Below are positions 5,095 to 59,068 of a stretch of 64,000 nt of DNA, one piece after another. The stretch is from NCBI GenBank assembly GCA_964016885.1, contig OZ024742.1, positions 269,762,001-269,826,000 on the forward strand, in the 5' to 3' direction. Every line of letters begins with the position of its first letter. Position 1 is the stretch's first letter. The notes under the pieces are model-generated. The model saw nothing but the letters and a program-made list of their open reading frames with translations. It was not told the DNA's origin and did no database searches. The DNA comes from Eledone cirrhosa (taxonomy: Eukaryota). The translations under genes and the position numbers were made by a program.

Positions 5095-8000
5095 GTTCGT
5101 CTACAGCGTGATAATGCCACACACATATCACGTGGAGTGACGGAACCACCGGAGACGAAGAATTCACCGGTGGTTATGTAACCATACATTCGCCAATCCT
5201 CGATAAGAGTGTTTAAATGTCGAACCTAAACAGTTCGAATAACGGTGAAATGGAGACTAGAACGTCATGTGACAGACTCTCACCCAACAGGTGCTCCCTG
5301 GCTCAGCAGCAGGGAACTGGCTGTCAACCAAATACTGCTGGTGTCGGGGGAAGAAGAAGAAGGAAAGGGACCAGAACCAACTGGACGAATGAATTGAATA
5401 GAATTGTTATGCAATGTTACCTGAAGAGTAACCCCAAGGAGAAAGGCTATAGGAAACGGATGCATAACATCTGGAACGAGATTGGTCTATTTAAATTCCA
5501 TGAACAAAAATTGGCCGGGCAGGCTCGGGTAATAAGAACTAATGGAGGGATAAGCGAGCTGGAACTGGAGGAACTGAGCAGAGAGATTAGCTTGGAGATG
5601 GAGAGTGGAGTATGCCAGGCAAACGAGCCAGTGGGAAATGAAGGTGAAGAGGTCGAGAGAACGGAAGAACCACCGGAAGCAGACAATGATCTGAATGCTG
5701 AGATGGATAATACCCGGAACAGAGATACGGCCACTGAGGAGATGAATGCTGTTGGGCTAGGACAAGATTTGGTTGATATCATAAACTTAGTGGTAGATGA
5801 ATTGTACAATGATAGTGGGAGGCCTATGAACCTAAGGTTTGTAGACAGGAAAAAGTTAAAAGAAACAACAGCTAAGGTAAACAAAGTCATCCCATACCTT
5901 GAGGCGAGGAGCCTTCACCAGTGCAACAATATCCTCAAAGCAACAGCAAATACGGTGAGGAAACTACTTGGTATAAAAGCGAGAGGAAACAAGAGACAGG
6001 AAAGAGCAGAGCCTTGGTGAAAGAAACGACTGAGTGGTCAAATCAGGGAAATGAGAAATGACATTGGAAAGCTTGAGACCCTACTGTATAGGACACTAAA
6101 AAACATAGACACTAAAAATAGACTGGAAATAAAGTACAAAACTAGGAGGAAAAAGCTAAATATTATCATAGAGGAACTGAAGCAACGCATTGTAGCAAAG
6201 AGTGCAAAAATCAGGCGATACGAGAACAGAGTCAGTCAGTATAAACAGAACCGCATGTTCGACAACAACCAGAAGATTATGTTTGGACAGCTTGAAGGGA
6301 AAGAAAGAGGCAACAACTTGAACCCTGAGGCGGAACAAACTAAAACATTCTGGAGAGGAATATGGGAGCAGGATGTTAAACATAATAACCAGGCAGTGTG
6401 TATTGAGACAGTACAGAAGGAGATTAGTGAACAGGCACACGAACAAACTGATTTGAGTATCACAGTTGAAACTCTTAAGGGGCAGGCCAAAAAACAAACC
6501 AACTGGAAATCACCAGGCCCAGATGGTGTGGAGGGGTATTGGATTAAAAATATAACATCCCTCCACCCGAAACTGACAACCATGTTCAATGACTGCTTGA
6601 TGTCAGGTGAGGTACAAGAGTGGTTGACAAAAGGTACTACAGTTCTGATAATGAAAGACCGAATCAAGAGTAATGATGTTACCAACTATAGACCTATCAC
6701 ATGTCTGTCCGTAATGTGGAAACTGCTAACAAGCATTATGTCTGAGGAAATCTTCCATCACCTCCACACAAACAACTTGTTACCGGACGAATAGAAAGGA
6801 TGCCGAAATAAGTCACGTGGTACAAAGGACCAGGTACTTATTGAAATGATGGTAAAGAGGAATTGCAAGAGGAGACACACTGGTCTTGCCATGGGATGGA
6901 TAGACTACAAAAAGGCATTCGACATGGTACGTCATTCTTGGATAACCAAAAGCCTGCAAATCTTCAAGGTGGCAGATAACATCAGACAAAAGTATGAAGT
7001 TATGTGAAACAAAGTTAACATCAACTGGAGAATCCTTGGGAAGCGTGAAGATCAAGAGAGGTATCTTCCAGGGAGATAGTCTGTCCTCTCTGTTTATTGT
7101 CCTTGCCCTGATGCCCCTGACCAGTGTACTGCGAAAAGTGAGAGCAGGATACAGGTTGGGAAAGGGATGGCTTACCATCAATCACCTGCTCGTTATGGAC
7201 GATCTTAAGCTCTTCTGGAAGAGTGAGAAGGATTTGGATGTGCTTGTTGACACTGTTCGTATTTTCACCAATGATATATGTATGCAATTTGGTATTAGTA
7301 AGTATGGAGTCATTGTGATGAGGAGGGGTAAGTTGAGCAGAAGTAACGGAATCCAGGTACCAACAGGTGAGATGATAAAGGAAATTGACTCTGAAGAAGG
7401 ATACAAGTATTTGGGCGTTCTGGAGGCTGATGACATCAAGAACAAAAAAATGAAGGAATTGATCAGAACTGAATACATTCAGAGAGTAAGGAGCGTATTA
7501 AAGACACATCTGAACAGTAGGAATGCCATAAGTGCAGTAAATTCCCAAGCTGTGTCTATTATTAGGTACAGTGCGGGAATTCTGAGATGGAATGTTGCTG
7601 AACAGAAAGAAATGGATAGGAAGACTGGGAAGCTATTGACTATCTACAACATGTTCCACAAGAGGAGTGATGTCGATAGACTCTACTTAAGGAGATCTGT
7701 GGGTGGAAGAGGTCTTATCATCATAGAGGACTGTGTTCAGATGGAGAAAAACAACCTACACAAATACGTGACTGATAGTAAGGAGCCAATGCTCAGAACT
7801 GTACTGAAGGAGGGGACAATAGGCCAGAGGATGTCCAAGGAGGAAATAACATGAAGTAGAAAGAGCAGCCTTCAGGAAAAATCCCTTCATAGTACCTTCT
7901 TTGAGAAAACTGAATTTAGAGATCCACAGACATGGAACTGATTGAAAAGAGGAGACCTTAAAAAGACTACAGAAGGAATGTTAATGGCTGCGCAGGAGCA

Positions 8001-21700: not shown

Positions 21701-24425
21701 TCATCCAGATCATATCTAGATAGAGTATTTTGTAAGGAAATAGATAGGTCTAGCATAGGCTGTCCTCAATTCAAGATAGTCAGCTACACGGACCACAAAT
21801 TCGTGATCTGTGTGCTTGTGTGCTTGACTTAGATAGGCTTCATAGACGAGGACCCGGTTACGGGAAGCTAAACGCGTCCTTACCAGCGCGCAAGGCCTGC
21901 AGAGACCGGATTAGCGAACTAGTTAAGCGGGCGTTGACGGGGGCCATCGTCAACAACAAGTGGTGGTTTGCTCTGAAAAGAGCGATTAGAATAGAATCGA
22001 TTAGGTTTAGTAAGGCTTTAGCAATAGAGAAAAATGGAGCAGAGGGAGAACTAGTTAGAAAATTAGACGAGGCGCTTAGCAAAGGCATTGCGACCGACGT
22101 GCTTGCGGCGAAATTGTCCCATGACCAATTATTCAAAGACACGAGGGGACGAAAGCCGTTCAATGGGCCCGAGTGGCGGAGGCGCGTCGTGGCAACAAAG
22201 CCACGATCCGGTCTTTGGTGGACCACGACGGGCGCATGCTACTCGATCCCGGGCAAATGTGTGAAGCTTTTCAGCGACACTTCGCTCAGCTGTTCGGCGA
22301 AAGCGGTGGGCCGGGTCGAGGGATGGACTTTAGTGTCTACCTCGACGGACTGCCGCGGCTCTCGGCCACTGAGGCGAGGTTTTGCGAAAAGCCGATAACA
22401 GCCGCTGAAGTAAGGGAGGCAATGACTGGCTGCACAAGGGGTAAATCGCCTGGTTTGGATGGTCTGCCCTATGAACTTTACGTACAGATGCCAGACTTGT
22501 TCGGAGGCCTCTTGGCGGACGTCTACTGCAACTGGCAACAGAACGGGAGAATTCCCAGTTCTGTGAGCCGAGGAGCGGTGGCACTGCTGAGAAAGGATCC
22601 GAACAAGGGGATAACATATATCATTTCCGGCCCATAACTCTACTAAACACAGAGTTCAAGATTTTGGCCAAGGTGCTGGCAAAGAGGTTGGCGCTTGTCG
22701 TTGGTGGTCTGGTGGGAGAGGCGCCATTCTCGACAGATCCATCCACGACAACCTCCACCTCATGCGTACATCGTAGAGAGGGTAGCTAGGGAACCTGGCA
22801 CGGGTGGGTCCTTGATCAATTTAGATCAGTCGAAAGCTTTCGATAGGGTCGACCATCGTTACCTAGCGGCAGTCCTGAGGGCGGCTGGCTTTGGGCCCGT
22901 CTTCAGAGGCTGGATCGCTGCCATGCACAGCGACATCTGCTCTGTCGGTGAGAGTGAACGGTCACCTGTCGGAACCGTTCAGCATCATGCGCTCGGTCCG
23001 GCAAGGATGTCCCCTCTCGTCCCTCTTGTACGTATTGACTCTCGAGCCATTACTGCACAAACTGGAGACGTTGAGGGGCATTACGCGCGAACTAGGATGC
23101 GGAAGATCCGTGTCAGCATATGCGGACGATGTCACCGTAGTGGTGTCGAACATCAAACACATCGAGGCGATCGGCACTACAGTAAGTGAATACGAAGCGG
23201 TGACAGGAGCAATGATCAACCAGGAAAAGTCAGTGGGCCTGCAGCTCGGCACCTGGAGAGGCAGGTCCATGCCGTCCAACAGCGTCGTCGGACGTTGGAC
23301 GGACGAACCGGTTAAATTGCTAGGGGTCTGGTTCGGTCCGGACCTCCAGACGGACAAAAACTGGGACGAGGTGACGAGCAGAGTGGCTTCTCTCACCCAG
23401 AAATGGGCGGAGTGGAAGCTATCCCTGAAAGCTCGAGCGGAAGTGGCTAACGCGTACATCGCGTCTGTCATCTGCTACCGCCTGACCGTCGTACCTTGTC
23501 CTAAGCCTCGCCTGACAGCGCTGGAGCGTTTGCTCTTTCGCTTTTTGTGGAAGGGACGCGCTCCGATGGTCAGGCGGTCCATCTGTTGTCAACACCCGCT
23601 ACGTGGTGGGCTGGGCATGCCGTGGCTGATGACGCGCAGGCACGCGCTCAGGCTACGACATCTCCACCTCTTCCTCGACGGTGATCAGGTGTGGTCGCCG
23701 TTAGCTAGACACGTATTACCCCAGCTCGTTTCCTTGACGGAGCTGCAGTCCTGGGTCAGGCGAAGACCGAGAGGGAGCGCCTGGAGACTGGAATGTCTTC
23801 AGGCGCTCACAGCCCTCGACCAATCGGGCAATGTGATCGGTGGAAACTCCACCTCGGCGTTCTATAGAGGATTAGTGGAGGGGAAGAGCGACGACGTACT
23901 TGGGGAAAATCTAGGCGTCGACGAAAATCAACTAGCCAATCTCTTCGGAATAACTTTCGGGCGAGGGCCTATGGACAACTTCCAGAAATCTCTGGCCTGG
24001 CAGTGCTACCGAGGAGCCTTGCCAGTTCGGGATAAACTCTACAGGTATGGAGGTGCCGTCAGCCGGGCATGTCCGAGATGCGCGCAGGGCGACGAAACCG
24101 TCCTGCAGGCACTCGTCCAGTGTCCGAAAATTGCTGACTTGTGGGTTTATGTCGAACACCTGCTGTCGCGTTTAGGACGGATCCGGCTATCATCTGGAAA
24201 ACTGGGAGAGGGCACTTGCCTTGGTGGTCTGGGTCATTGTGGCCTTTTACTGGGCTTTCTCCACAAATGTCCCTCCGAAGTCTCCCCCCTATTGGGGAAT
24301 TTTTCATTGTTATTTTTTGTTACATCCTCTGTTTTTGTTTTTTACACGCAGAAATGCCCTCCTGTATTGTCCTGCACTGTCCTTAATGTCTACTTTATGT
24401 AAACCCTTGTGGTTAATAAAGAAAT
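18754..24425 (+). mobile_element. Near full-length Tx1/L1-clade non-LTR retrotransposon (frameshifted) between two (TTA)n tracts
   Basis: 5' UTR; ORF1 18970-21117 (Asn/Ser tract, CFRCGSKTHLRAFC knuckle across a frameshift); ORF2 from 21120 with APE and RT (RQGCPLS, AYADD, GGLG, CPRC..ET); AATAAA at ~24415. About 0.3 kb near 24195 is deleted relative to 17310-17605. Confidence 0.95.
21120..24200 (+). pseudogene. ORF2 (APE endonuclease-reverse transcriptase) of the Tx1 element, several frameshifts
   Basis: ORF pieces 21120-21554, 21572-21832, 21820-22398, 22173-22637, 22695-23189 and 22891-24402 carry collinear motifs. Confidence 0.9.
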
Positions 24426-29185: not shown

Positions 29186-29228
29186 GTCAAAGTTCTTTCG
29201 TCACACATTATGTGACCTCTTCAGTGAC
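29186..29228 (-). ncRNA. Minimal type I hammerhead ribozyme in the PLE 3' UTR
   Basis: GUCA-CUGAAGA-G-GUCACA(UAAUG)UGUGAC-GAAA-GAAC-UU-UGAC. Confidence 0.75.
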
Positions 29229-33224: not shown

Positions 33225-34172
33225 AATGAAAAAACCCTTTTAAGAAAACCCACTGTACCAATAGGAAATGTATCATATGTAAGGTGAACCCCCGGATAAA
33301 CTGTAAAACTAGAAACGTAGTCTATATCATAAGGTGTACAGAGGGTACTTGCAGAAACCTGACAACAACATACATAGACAAAACAGCTCGTAGCATAGGT
33401 GAAAGGATAGACCAACACTGGGGGGAACTAAAAGGACGAAAAAACGGGTCAGTACTATACGAACATGCTAGACAACAACATGACGGTAACATAGACAACA
33501 TAGAAATTAGAATAATATCTAAACATAGGAATGACCCAGCAGATAGGCAAATCAGAGAGGCCAGTGAAATAGAAATTAGAAGACCAAAGCTAAACAGAAA
33601 GAATGAGTGGAACAACAACAACACCCAAACAAACAACACTGACCTAAGAGAAGTATAAATAAGTAAATAAAATAAAATAAAATAAGATAAATAAATACAT
33701 ACACAAGCACAATAACAACAAGCACATAAACACACACTAGTCACCCAGCAGACACAACACTATACACACTAGTCACACAGCAAACATAACACTATACACA
33801 CACGCAAACGCATGCGTAAAGAAGACAAAATAAAATAAACAAACAAGCATATAAATAAATAAATATATAGACAGACTGAATAAAAAATGGCGTAGACATA
33901 CAACACAACAGGAGGAAAAATATAACACCACTGACGATGTTGCAGATGTGCAACGAAAGATTTATGTAAATTATATAAACTATATATATGTGTTTGTGTC
34001 TATATTGTATCTGTATTATTTTTGACCGTCGGTCAGTCAATGGCAACATTGAGGACCGATTAAGTTAGATCGCAGATATAAAAGACAGCGAGAAGCGAAA
34101 ACCAACCAAACAGTGAGTGTGTTCTGTTATTAATTCTGGCAATATAACACAAATATGACCCTCCCCAAGTAT

Positions 34173-36260: not shown

Positions 36261-36629
36261 TGTGTTTTATTTTTCCTTTCCTTCTTCCTTTTCCAGCCTC
36301 ACTTTCATATAGATTATATTTTTGCTTTTAAAATCAAACGTCAATAAATACCCCAGGATGTTTTCATTCTGATGATTGAAAACAACATTTGTTTGCTTTT
36401 AAGGAACCACTGATAAATGAAATAATTGCCTTATGTTGTTTATTACATAACTATATATATATATATATAGGAGGTGTGTTTTATTGTCGCACAATAAAGC
36501 AATGCAAATATCGGATAAGTAGCACTCTACAATGTGTAGGACTGGAGTATAAATAATGTAAGATCTGGAGTATGAATAATATAACCATCTTTTGATCTTA
36601 TATTATATATATATATGTGTGTGTGCGTG

Positions 36630-45591: not shown

Positions 45592-45704
45592 TCTAACGTA
45601 CGTTTCAATAGACATCAATTTGCCTAGATCTCGCTGCATCTATAATATATAGTTAGTAGAACATTCAACATCCAATGCACAATCGATTCCATATCATCAG
45701 AGAT
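45592..45704 (-). ncRNA. Type I hammerhead ribozyme with a long stem II
   Basis: UCU-CUGAUGA-U[AUGGAAUCGAUU..long hairpin..AAUUGAUGUCUAU]U-GAAA-CGUACG-UU-AGA. Confidence 0.6.
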
Positions 45705-46005
45705 TATGTTTACCGTACCAGAATGTTCAGGTTTTTATAGGAATTCATGTGAAGTTGAAGTAGAGAAGAAGGAGGATGTGACAAAGACGAGAGAGATGGG
45801 AGGGGGGGGGGGGGGGGGGGGTCATGAAAAAAACCCTATCTCTATATGTTGATTTAAAACTGCACTATCCACAAGTGTTTTTTGGCCTTCATATCATGTT
45901 CTCCTGTTTTATCTGATGAAAACACAAATATTATTGCTTGATGATGTTTGTTTTTGAAATGCGCATAATAAAATATATGGAACTCCTTTAACCATCTTTT
46001 GATCT

Positions 46006-46640: not shown

Positions 46641-46675
46641 TGGAAAATGTGTGTAATCCTTGGTACAGTTAGGTA

Positions 46676-49803
<3,128 letters not shown>

Positions 49804-49812
49804 GTATACATA

Positions 49813-50689: not shown

Positions 50690-53150
<2,461 letters not shown>

Positions 53151-53156
53151 TATTAT

Positions 53157-53342
53157 GTGGATTGGCAGTATCGGTAGAGGGTCGGCCGCCATGCTTTTCA
53201 GCACAGTTACGTCCCTTTACGGACTGAGTTCAAATCCCGCCGAGGTTCACTTTGCCTTTCATCCTTACGGGGTCGATAAAATAAAGTACCAGTAATACAC
53301 TGGGATAATTGCTGGCCTTGTGCCAAAAGTAGAAACAATTAT
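53157..53342 (+). mobile_element. Full-length SINE copy
   Basis: Same family as 44363-44540. Confidence 0.85.
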
Positions 53343-53555
53343 TTACGAAGTTTCTAAAAACAGTGGGAGGGTTGTACTTTCTGTTCCGTATAACCATGTC
53401 CATTACGTTCTACAAAGATATAAATGATCTGGTAAGGTGAAACAATTGTTTTCGGTATGGTAACCTAACTGTTGTGTAACCACCTCTACCTAACTCGCCC
53501 CATGGACTGAGTTCTCTACCACTACGGACATTAACTTCCAGTGTTCTACCACTAT
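53341..53555. repeat. Duplicate of 54742-54945; a diverged inverted copy lies at ~53700-53800
   Basis: Direct sequence match. Confidence 0.85.
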
Positions 53556-53581
53556 TTACATATATATATATATATATATAT

Positions 53582-53678
<97 letters not shown>

Positions 53679-53959
53679 GAGATATAGAGAGAGAGGGAGA
53701 GAACTGGTTACACAACATTTAGTTCACCATAGCAATTGTATCACCCTAGCGGATCCTCACCTGGTAATGGACATGGTTGTACGGAACAGGACGGACAACC
53801 ATACGAACGCGCATGTGCAGAAACGGTCACTTCACGCTGGCAAAACTAAATTGGGTGCTAGTGGTATAAGGGTGATAACTGCGAAGTCCGAAAGTTTCTA
53901 GTTGATCAGAAAATGAGGATGTTGTTGTAATTCAATCCGAAGCTTTGTAGTTATGTAAG

Positions 53960-54760
53960 AGATATTTCCAGACCTGTGGACAACATGTTAAGAATTCATA
54001 TCTTGATTTTAGGCAATCGCTATTGCGTAATCTCTTTAGAATATTTATTCGTTCATCAATGCATAATCAACACGACGGATTGCCCCTTGCGTATGACTTG
54101 GACATAGTGATGAATTTCCATTGAATGGAGTAGTCCATACTTGAGTCCTTGAGGGCCCATACATGGCTCGCGAGTTTCGTGGATGAACGTCTTTCCGGGT
54201 ACCTAAAGGTCGGTTGGTGACTCAGGAAGTGTTCCTTAAATCGGCCCTGCGCCACACCCCCATAGGATTGGACCTCCTGTGGTTGATTTGGTGGGTTACC
54301 ATAGCTACATAAACTACTGCGGGTGTATTGCATTGCTGTTGAAGCGGACAAGCTTCGGGCTTACGTCCAGATTATCCTGGTGGGTGTTGCTCTTAGGGAT
54401 GTTGGTGATGTGGGCCTTCATGTTCTTAGCGCAGGAGTATCCCAGTTTTAATTTGTGTCGGTTAAAGATGGAGCGGTATTTATGACCTATGGGAAAGTGT
54501 CTATCTAAGAGGGCTTGAAACGTTTTGCCTACATTGGTTTTAACGTTGAGGGAGAAGGGAGGAGAGAACCAGATAGTTTGTCTATTGTTATGCTTTGTTT
54601 TCTTATTGCTGTTGTTGTTAGTTGGGGAGCAAGTGGTAGATTGCGAGAAGCCGCTGCTAGCTAACACCGTGTTATAGTAGGGTGCCGCTCTGTCGAATAT
54701 AGCCTTATTAGAGGGGAGGTTTGAGATTCTAGTACTGATATTATTTACGAAGTTTCTAAA
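53960..54760 (-). mobile_element. PLE 3' fragment (fourth family): RT thumb and GIY-YIG-type endonuclease
   Basis: IWFSPPFSLNVKTNVGKTF..LLDRHFP..IFNR..LGYSC..NM; FKEHF..H..F..STKLASHVWALK..IQW..C.LC..E. Confidence 0.8.
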
Positions 54761-54956
54761 AACAGTGGGAGGGTTGTCCTTTCTGTTCCGTATAACCATG
54801 TCCATTACGAGCTGAGGATCTGGTAAGGTGAAACAATTGTTTTCGGTATGGTGAACTAACTGTTGTGTAACCACTTCTACCTAACTCGCTCCATGGAGTG
54901 AGTGCTCTACCAGTACGGACATTAACTTCCAGTGTTCTACCACTATATATATATAT

Positions 54957-55139
<183 letters not shown>

Positions 55140-55268
55140 TTGTAATAGAATGAAAACTAAATTTCATTTCTCACTCTTATACGGCACTTACTTAAATGTA
55201 AGTATGTATGTATACGTACATACATATATGTATACAGACGTACAGTAGCATGCATGTATATCTATATA

Positions 55269-55346
<78 letters not shown>

Positions 55347-55432
55347 CAGGTACACATACATATATGTACGTATCAGTTTAGCGGACGTTTATTATAGCGC
55401 CCTCTTTGTTCAACCATCTGGCAGAAGGGTAT

Positions 55433-55475
55433 ACGGTGCTGATGATAGCTAACAAGCTTGAAGCTAGTACATCGT
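55433..55475 (+). ncRNA. Type I hammerhead ribozyme, GAAG variant
   Basis: ACGGUG-CUGAUGA-U-AGCU(AACA)AGCU-U-GAAG-CUAG-UA-CAUCGU. Confidence 0.75.
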
Positions 55476-55625
55476 TCCTGTGTCAGTGTTGAACAAAAAG
55501 GTGACGTGGCTGCCTTAACACCGTACGGCATAAATTCAGGCTGTCCGTTTGTTTACAAATGGACAAAGCGGGCGTTATAATAAATGTCCGCTAAACTGAT
55601 ACGTACATATATGTATGTGTACCAG

Positions 55626-55712
<87 letters not shown>

Positions 55713-55950
55713 GCATGCTACTGTACGTCTGTATACATATATGTATGTACGTATACATAGATACTTACATTTAAGTAAGTGCCGTATAAGAGTGAGAAAT
55801 GAAATTTCGTTTTCATTCTATTACAACTTATCGTTTTCGGTGCGCCTGGCCAACGGAACTCACTCGATATGCAAATTAGGCTGCTCAGCCGTTAATTTTC
55901 ATAAGGAAAGTATATACTTTCGAACGTTCAACCATCTGGCAGAAGGGTAT

Positions 55951-55993
55951 ACGGTGCTGATGATAGCTAACAAGCTTGAAACTAGTACATCGT
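55951..55993 (+). ncRNA. Type I hammerhead ribozyme, intact core
   Basis: ACGGUG-CUGAUGA-U-AGCU(AACA)AGCU-U-GAAA-CUAG-UA^CAUCGU; stem I extends via AGGG/UCCU, CUGGCA/UGUCAG and UUCAAC/GUUGAA. Confidence 0.85.
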
Positions 55994-56143
55994 TCCTGTG
56001 TCAGTGTTGAACAAAAAGGTGACGTGGTTGCCTTAACACGGTACGGCATACATTCAGGCTCTCCGTTTGTTTACAAATGGACAAAGCGGGCGCTATAATA
56101 AACGTCCGCTAATCTCATACGTACATATATGTATGTGTACCTG

Positions 56144-56196
<53 letters not shown>

Positions 56197-56250
56197 CGGC
56201 GATGAATTAGTTTTGCGAGGTTTTTTATATGAAATCGTGTGTCGAAACAG

Positions 56251-56783
56251 ATATTGTTATATTTGGGGAGGGTCATATTTGCGTAATATTGCCAGAATTA
56301 ATAACAGAACACACTCACTGTTTGGTTGGTTTTCGCTTCTCGCTGTCTTTTATATATATATATCTGCGATCTAACTGACCTAAGAGAAGTACAAACAAAC
56401 AAGCAAATTAAATCAAACAAAACAAGACAAATAAATACATACACAAGCACACAAACACACACCAGTCACCCAGCAGACACAACACTATACACACCAGTCA
56501 CACATCACACATAACAGTGTTATGTGTGATGTGTGACTGGTGTGTATAGTGTTGTGTCTGCTGGGTGACTGGTGTGTGTTTGTGTGCTTGTGTATGTATT
56601 TATTTGTCTTGTTTTGTTTGATTTAATTTGCTTGTTTGTTTGTACTTCTCTTAGGTCAGTTAGATCGCAGATATATATATATAAAAGACAGCGAGAAGCG
56701 AAAACCAACCAAACAGTGAGTGTGTTCTGTTATTAATTCTGGCAATATTACGCAAATATGACCCTCCCCAAATATAACAATAT
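56251..56783. repeat. Perfect 533-bp palindrome built from PLE 3'-UTR pieces
   Basis: Centre at 56517; identical ORFs at 56326-56514(+) and 56520-56708(-); arms match 33638-33790 and 34060-34178. Confidence 0.93.
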
Positions 56784-56802
56784 ATATATATACATATATA
56801 TG

Positions 56803-56855
<53 letters not shown>

Positions 56856-56859
<4 letters not shown>

Positions 56860-58797
56860 TGGAATAAATGCTCTGAAATAGCGATATATATGTGAATATA
56901 GACATAGAATATTCGAAAATATTCTGTATGTTTATAATAAACATTTTGAAGACCTAATCGCTATAGAATAGAATACGTCACGTATTGCAATTAGATTCTC
57001 GACAAAAGCAAGGGAAGTAATCTACGCGTTTCATTCTTATTAGAAATCTTCAGGACCACATATCCAGTGCTTTTATCGAGAATGACACAGCTAGAGACTT
57101 ATAGAATACTTAGCTGTGTACAGGAACTGGTTTGAAAGAGCGGTTACCGGTCCGGCAGAAATTAGAAATTGGAATAAATGCTCTGAAATAGCGATATATA
57201 TGTGAATATAGACATAGAATATTCGAAAATATTCTGTATGTTTATAATAAACATTTTGAAGACCTAATCGCTATAGAATAGAATACGTCACGTATTGCAA
57301 TTAGATTCTCGACAAAAGCAAGGGAAGTAATCTACGCGTTTCATTCTTATTAGAAATCTTCAGGACCACATATCCAGTGCTTTTATCGAGAATGACACAG
57401 CTAGAGACTTATAGAATACTTAGCTGTGTACAGGAACTGGTTTGAAAGAGCGGTTACCGGTCCGGCAGAAATTAGAAATTGGAATAAATGCTCTGAAATA
57501 GCGATATATATGTGAATATAGACATAGAATATTCGAAAATATTCTGTATGTTTATAATAAACATTTTGAAGACCTAATCGCTATAGAATAGAATACGTCA
57601 CGTATTGCAATTAGATTCTCGACAAAAGCAAGGGAAGTAATCTACGCGTTTCATTCTTATTAGAAATCTTCAGGACCACATATCCAGTGCTTTTATCGAG
57701 AATGACACAGCTAGAGACTTATAGAATACTTAGCTGTGTACAGGAACTGGTTTGAAAGAGCGGTTACCGGTCCGGCAGAAATTAGAAATTGGAATAAATG
57801 CTCTGAAATAGGGATATATATGTGAATATAGACATAGAATATTCGAAAATATTCTGTATGTTTATAATAAACATTTTGAAGACCTAATCGCTATAGAATA
57901 GAATACGTCACGTATTGCAATTAGATTCTCGACAAAAGCAAGGGAAGTAATCTACGCGTTTCATTCTTATTAGAAATCTACAGGACCACATATCCAGTGC
58001 TTTTATCGAGAATGACACAGCTAGAGACTTATAGAATACTTAGCTGTGTACAGGAACTGGTTTGAAAGAGCGGTTACCGGTCCGGCAGAAATTAGAAATT
58101 GGAATAAATGCTCTGAAATAGCGATATATATGTGAATATAGACATAGAATATTCGAAAATATTCTGTATGTTTATAATAAACATTTTGAAGACCTAATCG
58201 CTATAGAATAGAATACGTCACGTATTGCAATTAGATTCTCGACAAAAGCAAGGGAAGTAATCTACGCGTTTCATTCTTATTAGAAATCTTCAGGACCACA
58301 TATCCAGTGCTTTTATCGAGAATGACACAGCTAGAGACTTATAGAATACTTAGCTGTGTACAGGAACTGGTTTGAAAGAGCGGTTACCGGTCCGGCAGAA
58401 ATTAGAAATTGGAATAAATGCTCTGAAATAGCGATATATATGTGAATATAGACATAGAATATTCGAAAATATTCTGTATGTTTATAATAAACATTTTGAA
58501 GACCTAATCGCTATAGAATAGAATACGTCACGTATTGCAATTAGATTCTCGACAAAAGCAAGGGAAGTAATCTACGCGTTTCATTCTTATTAGAAATCTT
58601 CAGGACCACATATCCAGTGCTTTTATCGAGAATGACACAGCTAGAGACTTATAGAATACTTAGCTGTGTACAGGAACTGGTTTGAAAGAGCGGTTACCGG
58701 TCCGGCAGAAATTAGAAATTGGAATAAATGCTCTGAAATAGCGATATATATGTGAATATAGACATAGAATATTCGAAAATATTCTGTATGTTTATAA
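56856..58797 (-). repeat. 310-bp tandem array (~6.3 near-identical units), one hammerhead ribozyme per unit; retrozyme-like
   Basis: GGAATAAATG recurs at 56861, 57171, 57481, 57791, 58101, 58411 and 58721. Minus-strand HHRs at 57017-57059, 57327-57369, 57637-57679, 57947-57989, 58257-58299 and 58567-58609. Confidence 0.93.
57017..57059 (-). ncRNA. Type I hammerhead ribozyme (first of six array copies)
   Basis: GUGGUC-CUGAAGA-U-UUCU(AAUA)AGAA-U-GAAA-CGCG-UA^GAUUAC; distal 16-bp helix AUUCUCGAUAAAAGCA/UGCUUUUGUCGAGAAU. Confidence 0.87.
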
Positions 58798-59030
58798 CAG
58801 TTCCTGTACACAGCTAAGTATTCTATAAGTCTCTAGCTGTGTCATTCTCGATAAAAGCACTGGATATGTGGTCCTGAAGATTTCTAATAAGAATGAAACG
58901 CGTAGATTACTTCCCTTGCTTTTGTCGAGAATCTAATTGCAATACGTGACGTATTCTATTCTATAGCGATTAGGTCTTCAAAATGTTTATTATAAACATA
59001 CAGAATATTTTCGAATATTCTATGTCTATA

Positions 59031-59034
<4 letters not shown>
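58798..59034 (+). repeat. Inverted partial copy of the 310-bp unit including a hammerhead at 58868-58910
   Basis: Reverse complement of most of the unit; ends in (TA)n. Confidence 0.92.

Positions 59035-59068
<34 letters not shown>

Follow-up and report, generated by a model that had tools for sequence, protein, structure and literature searches.

Introduction

Canonical metazoan hammerhead ribozymes are described as having a helix I of 6 bp, a helix II of 4 bp and a helix III of 1-2 bp with a palindromic loop, and as acting as dimers (PMC4209133). The 5' U of loop 1 has been reported to make a reverse Hoogsteen contact with the last A of loop 2 (PMC2632901, PMC11875169), and GUA is a known natural cleavage site (PMC1636495). 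The pair at positions 10.1 and 11.1, at the base of helix II, is replaced by U·U in some natural hammerheads (Perreault 2011, PMC3088659, which cites Ruffner 1990 for U-U as the most active mispair), among them axolotl HHR_Amex2, present in ~60,000 copies, whose monomers cleave 22% in an hour and whose dimers cleave far better (PMC7229834). Here we describe two tandem repeats with U·U hammerheads in a 64,000-nucleotide stretch of the Eledone cirrhosa genome (hereafter the window; assembly GCA_964016885.1, contig OZ024742.1, positions 269,762,001 to 269,826,000, forward strand). An original prediction, made by a model from the letters of the window, held that these repeats share a non-canonical design and represent a selected hammerhead subtype that strict descriptors would miss.

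Penelope-like elements (PLEs) are characterised by inverted 5'-truncated arms, 30-40-bp tails and microsatellite targets (PMC8557442), and the tail, the stretch between two internal reverse transcriptase (RT) start sites, has been called unique to PLEs (PMC11167929). In cephalopods, the giant squid genome paper reports 235 Rfam hammerheads, and the main text on Octopus vulgaris repeat annotation contains neither 'ribozyme' nor 'retrozyme'. The richness in (TA)n and the SINE-like repeats of the window give it an octopus-like appearance. Our literature searches on hammerheads and retrozymes in octopus, squid and cephalopods returned no description of the families reported below; Lunse et al. 2017 and supplements may bear on their novelty.

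Results

Insertions of both repeats end at fixed sites in (TA)n tracts

We found nine copies of the motif in the window, all within 55427-58914, and both predicted versions are present, seven times in a 310-bp repeat and twice in a second repeat that we call the AGC family (Table 1). Both repeats are short and non-coding, occur in tandem with a single type I hammerhead in each unit, and are dispersed over many loci. The 310 array contains no open reading frame (ORF) of at least 130 aa, and the AGC unit has one 136-aa stop-to-stop frame across its (TA)n. We conclude that both repeats are very probably non-LTR (long terminal repeat) retrozymes with U·U type I hammerheads, whose insertions have two fixed end sites in (TA)n and which were likely copied by a PLE RT-endonuclease.

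In the window, the 310-bp insertion consists of two arms in opposite orientation. With unit positions counted from the cleavage site, the 3' end of the longer arm is at ~165-167, abutting (TA)n, and the truncated arm ends 35 nt before the end site of the opposite arm, a difference that corresponds to a tail. We mapped the ends of this family at 26 loci (18 + 8), 20 of them two-armed in opposite orientation and six one-armed. In 19 of the 20 two-armed loci (13/13 and 6/7), the two ends lie near unit positions 130 and 165, one at each, and run into (TA)n; the calls range from 117 to 134 and from 156 to 170, as exact extension halts at substitutions. The six one-armed loci end near 130 or 165, and the inner junctions of the insertions are scattered. 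The same geometry is seen in a related family with G-C at positions 10.1 and 11.1, whose ends lie near 230 and 300 in 10/10 two-armed loci (16 stretches examined, one of them empty; two of the ten loci were pieced together from separately retrieved ends). In the AGC family, where ends were called by anchor patterns that found a TA-type end in 22 of 31 loci and missed that of the window itself, both ends could be called in six of the 31 loci examined, and all six had one end of each type. An ORF-bearing PLE-type element, in turn, ends 32-36 or 101-107 nt past its ribozyme in 24 of 28 distinct arms.

Given these paired, fixed insertion ends, it is likely that the enzymes of Penelope-type retrotransposons make and insert the genomic copies of both repeats. 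In the main text of PMC7229834 and of bioRxiv 10.64898/2026.07.22.740005, inverted insertions with two arms whose tail ends are fixed in (TA)n go unmentioned, and a literature search on retrozymes with Penelope tails, inverted arms and microsatellites found no such report among the titles and abstract openings of the first 15 of 49 papers.

Neighbouring monomers within arrays differ by 0-1 bases (nine loci) and arrays differ between loci, as expected if each insertion had one template. A further AGC-family insertion, truncated within its ribozyme and with a short inverted arm, lies at 49190-49810, and nested inverted repeats (arms of 601 and 358 bp) flanking (TA)n at 46674-49127 are possibly another two-armed insertion. 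Between the two putative retrozymes of the window, at 56224-56810, we found a 293-bp palindrome (96%, with a perfect centre) that has a related unit near 33732; it contains no hammerhead core.

The hammerhead fold is supported by counts, controls and covariation

To search the 3.0-Gb genome, we used exact matches to a pattern of U·U plus a 14-nt stem II, with the reversed pattern as control. This search gave 44,074 matches as compared to 0 for the control, and the strict descriptor had 0 matches in 100 dinucleotide shuffles of the window. In an alignment of 20 copies, 87.5% of cells are paired and two-sided changes occur at 12 of 16 pairs, so the helices do differ in sequence yet pair, as predicted. 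None of 500 shuffles equalled the pairing or covariation score of this alignment, a result inflated by kinship among the copies. Helix III is invariant or palindromic and hence gives no covariation signal.

All nine window copies have U at 10.1 and at 11.1. Seven have the full core (CUGANGA, GAAA and UH in a three-way junction with open helix I), and two have one core change each. The 310-family copy at 57943-57995 carries A6U and is likely inactive, judging from its sequence; the same applies to the AGC-family copy at 55427-55479, where the GAAA of the predicted motif reads GAAG, whereas the other AGC copy has the motif as given.

In a survey of stems, we kept 49 of 59 distinct sequences and dropped 10 for broken or shifted stems. 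An unpaired U1.7 is present in 49/49, and loop II ends in A in 48/49. The parse of stem I originally given for the second family overlooked this base (CAUCGU-U-CCU); both families share an internal loop in which UAU faces the single unpaired U1.7, followed by three further pairs. The predicted AAYA of loop II is indeed common to both families. The U-A pair said to close it is present in 47 of the 49 kept sequences and in 17 of the 20 aligned copies, with no alternative pair. Because this pair never covaries, loop II may instead be a hexaloop UAAYAA on a four-position helix that begins with U·U (U·U plus 3 bp). The name '518-bp family' fits only the spacing at the window locus; in other loci the monomer is 407-538 bp, varying in length because of its internal variable (TA)n.

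Predicted folds are consistent with RNA that acts between copies and as circles. The helix III palindromes are predicted to pair between copies with duplex energies of -7.5 and -4.8 kcal/mol. Circular monomers are predicted to fold more stably than 40 shuffles each, with z scores of -4.1 for the 310 unit and -6.9 to -13.4 for five others, the values for AGC circles being inflated by microsatellite content, and stem I stays formed in these folds.

Standard models do miss the motifs, as had been anticipated. The best Rfam scores were 14.4 and 17.6 bits for the two families as compared to 36.5 for the G-C sister; all three, the G-C sister included, lie below the HH9 gathering score of 52, and no other hammerhead family was listed for the two U·U families. 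In the HH9 alignment, UAU falls on the stem I bulge of the model and UAAYAA on its hexaloop. An Rfam scan of the 64-kb window returned no hammerhead among 133 matches at E<=1, nearly all of them microsatellite look-alikes of microRNA models. In Perreault 2011, too, a rule excluded mispairs at 10.1-11.1.

U·U dominates both families and is not obligatory

To see how U·U varies, we compared the matches within and between families. In the AGC family, 25,369 of 26,739 matches have U·U (95%), 1,182 have another base at 10.1, and 188 keep U at 10.1 with another base at 11.1; the first 100 of the 1,182 are mostly C·A. In the 310 family, 3,978 of 18,312 matches (22%) have A10.1-U11.1, in homogeneous arrays that equal the U·U arrays in homogeneity. 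Thus, U·U is typical of both families, as originally proposed, and it is not obligatory in either: a canonical pair in the family consensuses had been named as evidence against the prediction, and such evidence is partly provided by the Watson-Crick A-U of more than a fifth of the 310 matches; relatives with C·A and G-C exist as well. Two 310-family loci with A-U arrays (L085, L092; 311-bp unit) have an extra stem I base near the cleavage site, and their arrays are still long and homogeneous.

A tree of 17 monomers of the 310 family, built with position 10.1 masked and without an outgroup root, interleaves A-U and U·U; its starred branches require at least two changes, and the most divergent copy has U·U. 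Among distant relatives of the 310 unit, U·U is kept in L050 (74-76% alike over two ~70-nt stretches) and A-U is found in L102. Contigs of two other organisms that span the AGC ribozyme have loop and stem I changes, with none listed at 10.1 or 11.1. Exchanging U·U for A-U changes the predicted hairpin by just 0.3-0.4 kcal/mol.

The G-C family, with a unit of 466-469 bp, makes up most of the first 100 of 11,728 non-U matches. It has the hexaloop, U1.7 and CUAG in common with the AGC family, and the bodies of these two families are homologous (66% over 256 nt; scores of 76-92 as compared to ~20 for shuffles). In contrast, the 310 and AGC bodies have no detectable homology (local score 21 against a shuffle mean of ~20), in keeping with the claim that the two repeats are unrelated.

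We also varied the pattern. With stem II kept at 14 nt, a pattern that required G or C at 10.2 gave 164 matches, mostly single-base decay of the two known families. U·U with a longer stem II gave 300 matches as compared to 53 in the control, mostly indel variants and noise, and one small family. In a small dispersed family (L073, L074, L076, L079), U·U occurs together with a CCGG palindrome, a GUC site and an 18-nt stem II that is mismatched internally.

U·U also closes helix II in predicted ribozymes of probable Penelope-type elements

The motif at 45592, for which the original prediction had also claimed U·U, was found with it. It belongs to a dispersed repeat in which U·U closes a stem of ~87-90 nt in all 11 copies listed, and it is likely a Penelope-type end; a weak GIY-YIG match (E 0.004) lies beside one copy of this family (L138). 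A second, smaller U·U ribozyme has 8,666 genome pattern matches as compared to 12 in the control and adjoins the 3' side of a PLE-type ORF. Its window copy, at 54812 (+), lies in a degenerate PLE-type insertion (53330-54943) that consists of an inverted pseudo-LTR, this ribozyme, an ORF fragment and a decayed ribozyme near 53750 (-); better copies of the insertion are found in L104-L116. The PLE-type ORF, P0001, has no Pfam match by itself, and its profile match to the GIY-YIG frame of the window is non-significant (E 0.08). Visible YRDD and GIY-YIG-like motifs, GIY-YIG in 3/30 relatives and its atlas neighbours suggest that P0001 is PLE-type. Taken together, U·U recurs in at least four unrelated or distant families, two Penelope-type ends among them.

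The window holds further elements of these kinds. A broken Penelope-like element at 51088-52830 (-) has an RT frame (PF00078, E 5e-8) and, C-terminal to it, a GIY-YIG frame (PF01541, E 6e-7). Hammerhead-like motifs at 45913 (+) and 34854 (-) have an 8-bp A/U-rich stem I, a long stem II starting with A-U and an AUA site. Minimal hammerhead-like motifs at 29224 (-) and 38902 (-) have an extra G between A9 and stem II, a pattern described for PLE minimal ribozymes (PMC4209133), and in two mutually related copies at 36369 (+) and 33224 (-) CUGANGA and GAAA are just two bases apart, with no stem II. RT frames of the long interspersed nuclear element (LINE) type lie at 22879-24399 (+), also with zf-RVT, and at 6946-7851 (+). 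Outside the window, at L103:4873-5505 and L142:2224-3201, a PHD finger comes after the RT frame; this type of non-LTR element is present in several copies.

Table 1. Retrozyme-like insertions, hammerhead motifs and target tracts of the window
Feature	Positions	Strand	Details
Tandem array of the probable 310-bp retrozyme	56856-58797	-	6.3 units; TRF period 310, 99% matches
Inverted 5'-truncated arm of the same 310-bp insertion	58798-59034	+	3' end = unit position 130 at (TA)n
Six 310-family hammerheads	57013-57065, 57323-57375, 57633-57685, 57943-57995, 58253-58305, 58563-58615	-	310-bp spacing
310-family type I hammerhead	58862-58914	+	U10.1 58881, U11.1 58894; predicted cleavage after 58904 (GUA)
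Probable AGC-family ('518-bp') retrozyme	55408-56149	+	1.4 units, internal (TA)n; halts in internal (TA)n of second unit
Inverted truncated arm of the AGC-family insertion	55137-55407	-	reaches the family's distal end site at (TA)n; same end site in other loci
AGC-family hammerhead copy	55427-55479	+	A15.1G (GAAG instead of GAAA)
AGC-family hammerhead, intact type I	55945-55997	+	U10.1 55964, U11.1 55977; predicted cleavage after 55987 (GUA)
(TA)n target tracts	54944-55136; 56150-56195; 56780-56855; 59034-59065		
Minimal hammerhead-like motif	45592-45703	-	U·U closes ~87-nt stem II; stem I only ~3 bp; 8-nt palindrome at helix III; GUU site
Small hammerhead in inverted pseudo-LTR of degenerate Penelope-like element	54805-54850	+	U·U + 2 bp

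Discussion

The observed ends and arrays fit a cycle that we propose by analogy with known elements. The array would be transcribed, neighbouring ribozymes would pair through the helix III palindrome (ACGCGU or ACUAGU) and cleave after GUA, and the unit-length RNA would be ligated into a structured circle. The protein of a presumed PLE partner would nick a (TA)n target on both strands, and reverse transcription would start at two points within the RNA, spaced by 35 nt (~60-70 nt in the sister families). The reverse transcriptase would circle the template several times from each start site, and the two products would join back to back, giving an inverted two-armed array. When putative-RNA contigs of two runs (assembled contigs only) were compared with 55715-56148, three 31-letter pieces matched, less than 90% alike and outside the ribozyme, which speaks neither for nor against expression. 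Beyond these two repeats, we are somewhat inclined to think that animal retrozymes in general are inserted by Penelope RT-endonucleases that prime both (TA)n strands from two fixed circle sites over many rounds, each insertion being a two-armed rolling-circle product. The ends described here would then be the first direct footprint of this process, giving the priming sites to the base, together with more than 50,000 U·U hammerheads missed by standard models, in which U·U possibly lowers cleavage.

Several points weigh against copying by PLE enzymes through ribozyme-made circles. The loci sampled for ends come nearly all from one contig and from the tops of hit lists, and one of the 20 two-armed 310 loci (L119) is an exception to the end rule. 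In the window, the AGC sense arm halts in its internal (TA)n, away from the family end sites, and the end-site spacing of the sister families exceeds the published 30-40. Among ~25 sampled loci, the retrozyme bodies have no sequence match to the pseudo-LTR ends of PLEs. In place of a circle, the template of the arrays could equally be a linear multimeric transcript, and the isolated 310-bp ribozyme is predicted to be weak, reaching -6.2 kcal/mol in the hammerhead fold without helix III as compared to a minimum free energy of -7.7 kcal/mol. Cleavage and transcription are predicted from sequence; eight of nine Xenopus retrozyme dimers are reported as showing no cleavage in vitro (bioRxiv 10.64898/2026.07.22.740005), and PLE insertion in vitro did not require ribozyme cleavage (PMC11167929).

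An alternative is that the arrays are satellite DNA that expanded locally through unequal crossover or slippage, starting from one PLE-derived end, with the ribozyme as an inactive passenger. Such a route is discussed in bioRxiv 10.64898/2026.07.22.740005, concerted evolution also yields homogeneous arrays, and two of the nine window copies have core mutations. We consider this improbable, since both arms are multimeric with two fixed (TA)n end sites in nearly all two-armed loci, compensatory changes run throughout all helices and also between subfamilies, and the repeats occupy thousands of dispersed loci although they have no ORF. Another question is whether the two families share their ribozyme by descent from one ancestral U·U ribozyme, with bodies diverged or swapped, rather than by convergent selection. 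This is compatible with retrozymes copied by PLE enzymes, and we regard it as a serious possibility, just short of an even case: spacing, U·U, UAU, UAAYAA and GUA are identical in both families, and the clear homology of the AGC and G-C bodies indicates that ribozyme and body evolve fast within a lineage. The 310 and AGC bodies themselves have no homology, G-C is found in the nearest relative of the AGC family, so that at least one switch is required either way, and the tree has no outgroup root.

The remaining explanation concerns U·U itself, which could be positively selected as an attenuator or switch, slower cleavage preserving circles or multimers for reverse transcription or tying cleavage to the dimer or to a PLE protein; U·U hammerheads would then be a functional subtype common to retrozymes and PLE ends in this genome. 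Its persistence in the 310 lineage (L050) while other stem II pairs turn over, its predominance among AGC matches, the lack of listed changes at 10.1 or 11.1 in the AGC-ribozyme contigs of two other organisms, and its presence in the small PLE end family and in the 45592 family all speak for this idea, as do the C·A mismatch subfamily of the AGC lineage and the use by both young families of GUA, which is slower than GUC in one viroid ribozyme (PMC1636495). Against it, A-U has arisen in at least two backgrounds of the 310 family in equally homogeneous long arrays, the G-C sister amplifies with identical insertion geometry, the predicted hairpin is shifted only slightly, and copy counts are not independent events. 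We therefore find selection for attenuation doubtful. The genome likely has a genuine bias towards U·U, and the counts do not by themselves point to selection. Most likely, U·U is a tolerated weak substitute for the canonical pair, propped by a putative loop I-loop II contact of U1.7 with the last A of loop II, which is suggested by residues that agree with the motif of Schistosoma-type ribozymes (PMC2632901, PMC11875169).

If PLE enzymes copy these repeats, the paired fixed ends are a mechanistic footprint of a mobilising machinery that, for animal retrozymes, has so far been argued from co-occurrence and homology. They predict priming precisely at unit positions 130 and 165, which is testable in the existing in vitro PLE assay. 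Being set in almost identical backbones, the natural U·U, A-U, C·A and G-C forms are a ready series on the role of the 10.1-11.1 pair, and ribozyme counts made with Rfam or strict descriptors can fall short by tens of thousands in such genomes. To a hammerhead specialist U·U by itself is no surprise; what deserves follow-up is the PLE-type tail footprint of the retrozyme arrays.

The sequence families described here are new relative to the metazoan non-LTR retrozymes covered in PMC7229834 and bioRxiv 10.64898/2026.07.22.740005, and the AGC monomer, with its internal (TA)n, extends beyond the 150-450 bp range given for metazoan retrozymes (PMC7229834). Helix lengths, palindromic helix III and loop contact are those of canonical metazoan type I hammerheads, and the G-C sister is alike; of the supposedly non-canonical design, only U·U departs from the metazoan norm, and U·U has already been published, so the subtype is not undescribed. 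Axolotl HHR_Amex2 resembles the repeats here in belonging to a very abundant retrozyme, with U·U at the foot of helix II and a short helix III, and it cleaves better as a dimer. In HHR_Amex2, helix III is 2 bp plus a tetraloop and the tertiary contact is weaker; here, U·U is combined with a helix III like that of HHR_Amex1 and newt satellite 2 (an A-U pair plus a palindromic tetraloop) and with apparently intact loop-loop residues. The ribozymes also resemble Schistosoma Sm-alpha and Hammerhead_HH9 (RF02275) in their 6-bp helix I, internal loop with U1.7, four-position helix II and hexaloop ending in A, and differ in having U·U instead of G-C and a single U on the 3' side of loop I. In partial tandems, an inverted 5'-truncated arm, a tail, AT-rich or (TA)n targets and a hammerhead within the repeat, the insertions resemble endonuclease-bearing (EN+) PLEs such as PAc of Anolis (PMC11167929; PMC8557442). 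In contrast to EN+ PLEs, the repeats here have no ORF, are inserted as whole multimers of a short unit, and carry a full helix II and loop contact rather than a minimal ribozyme.

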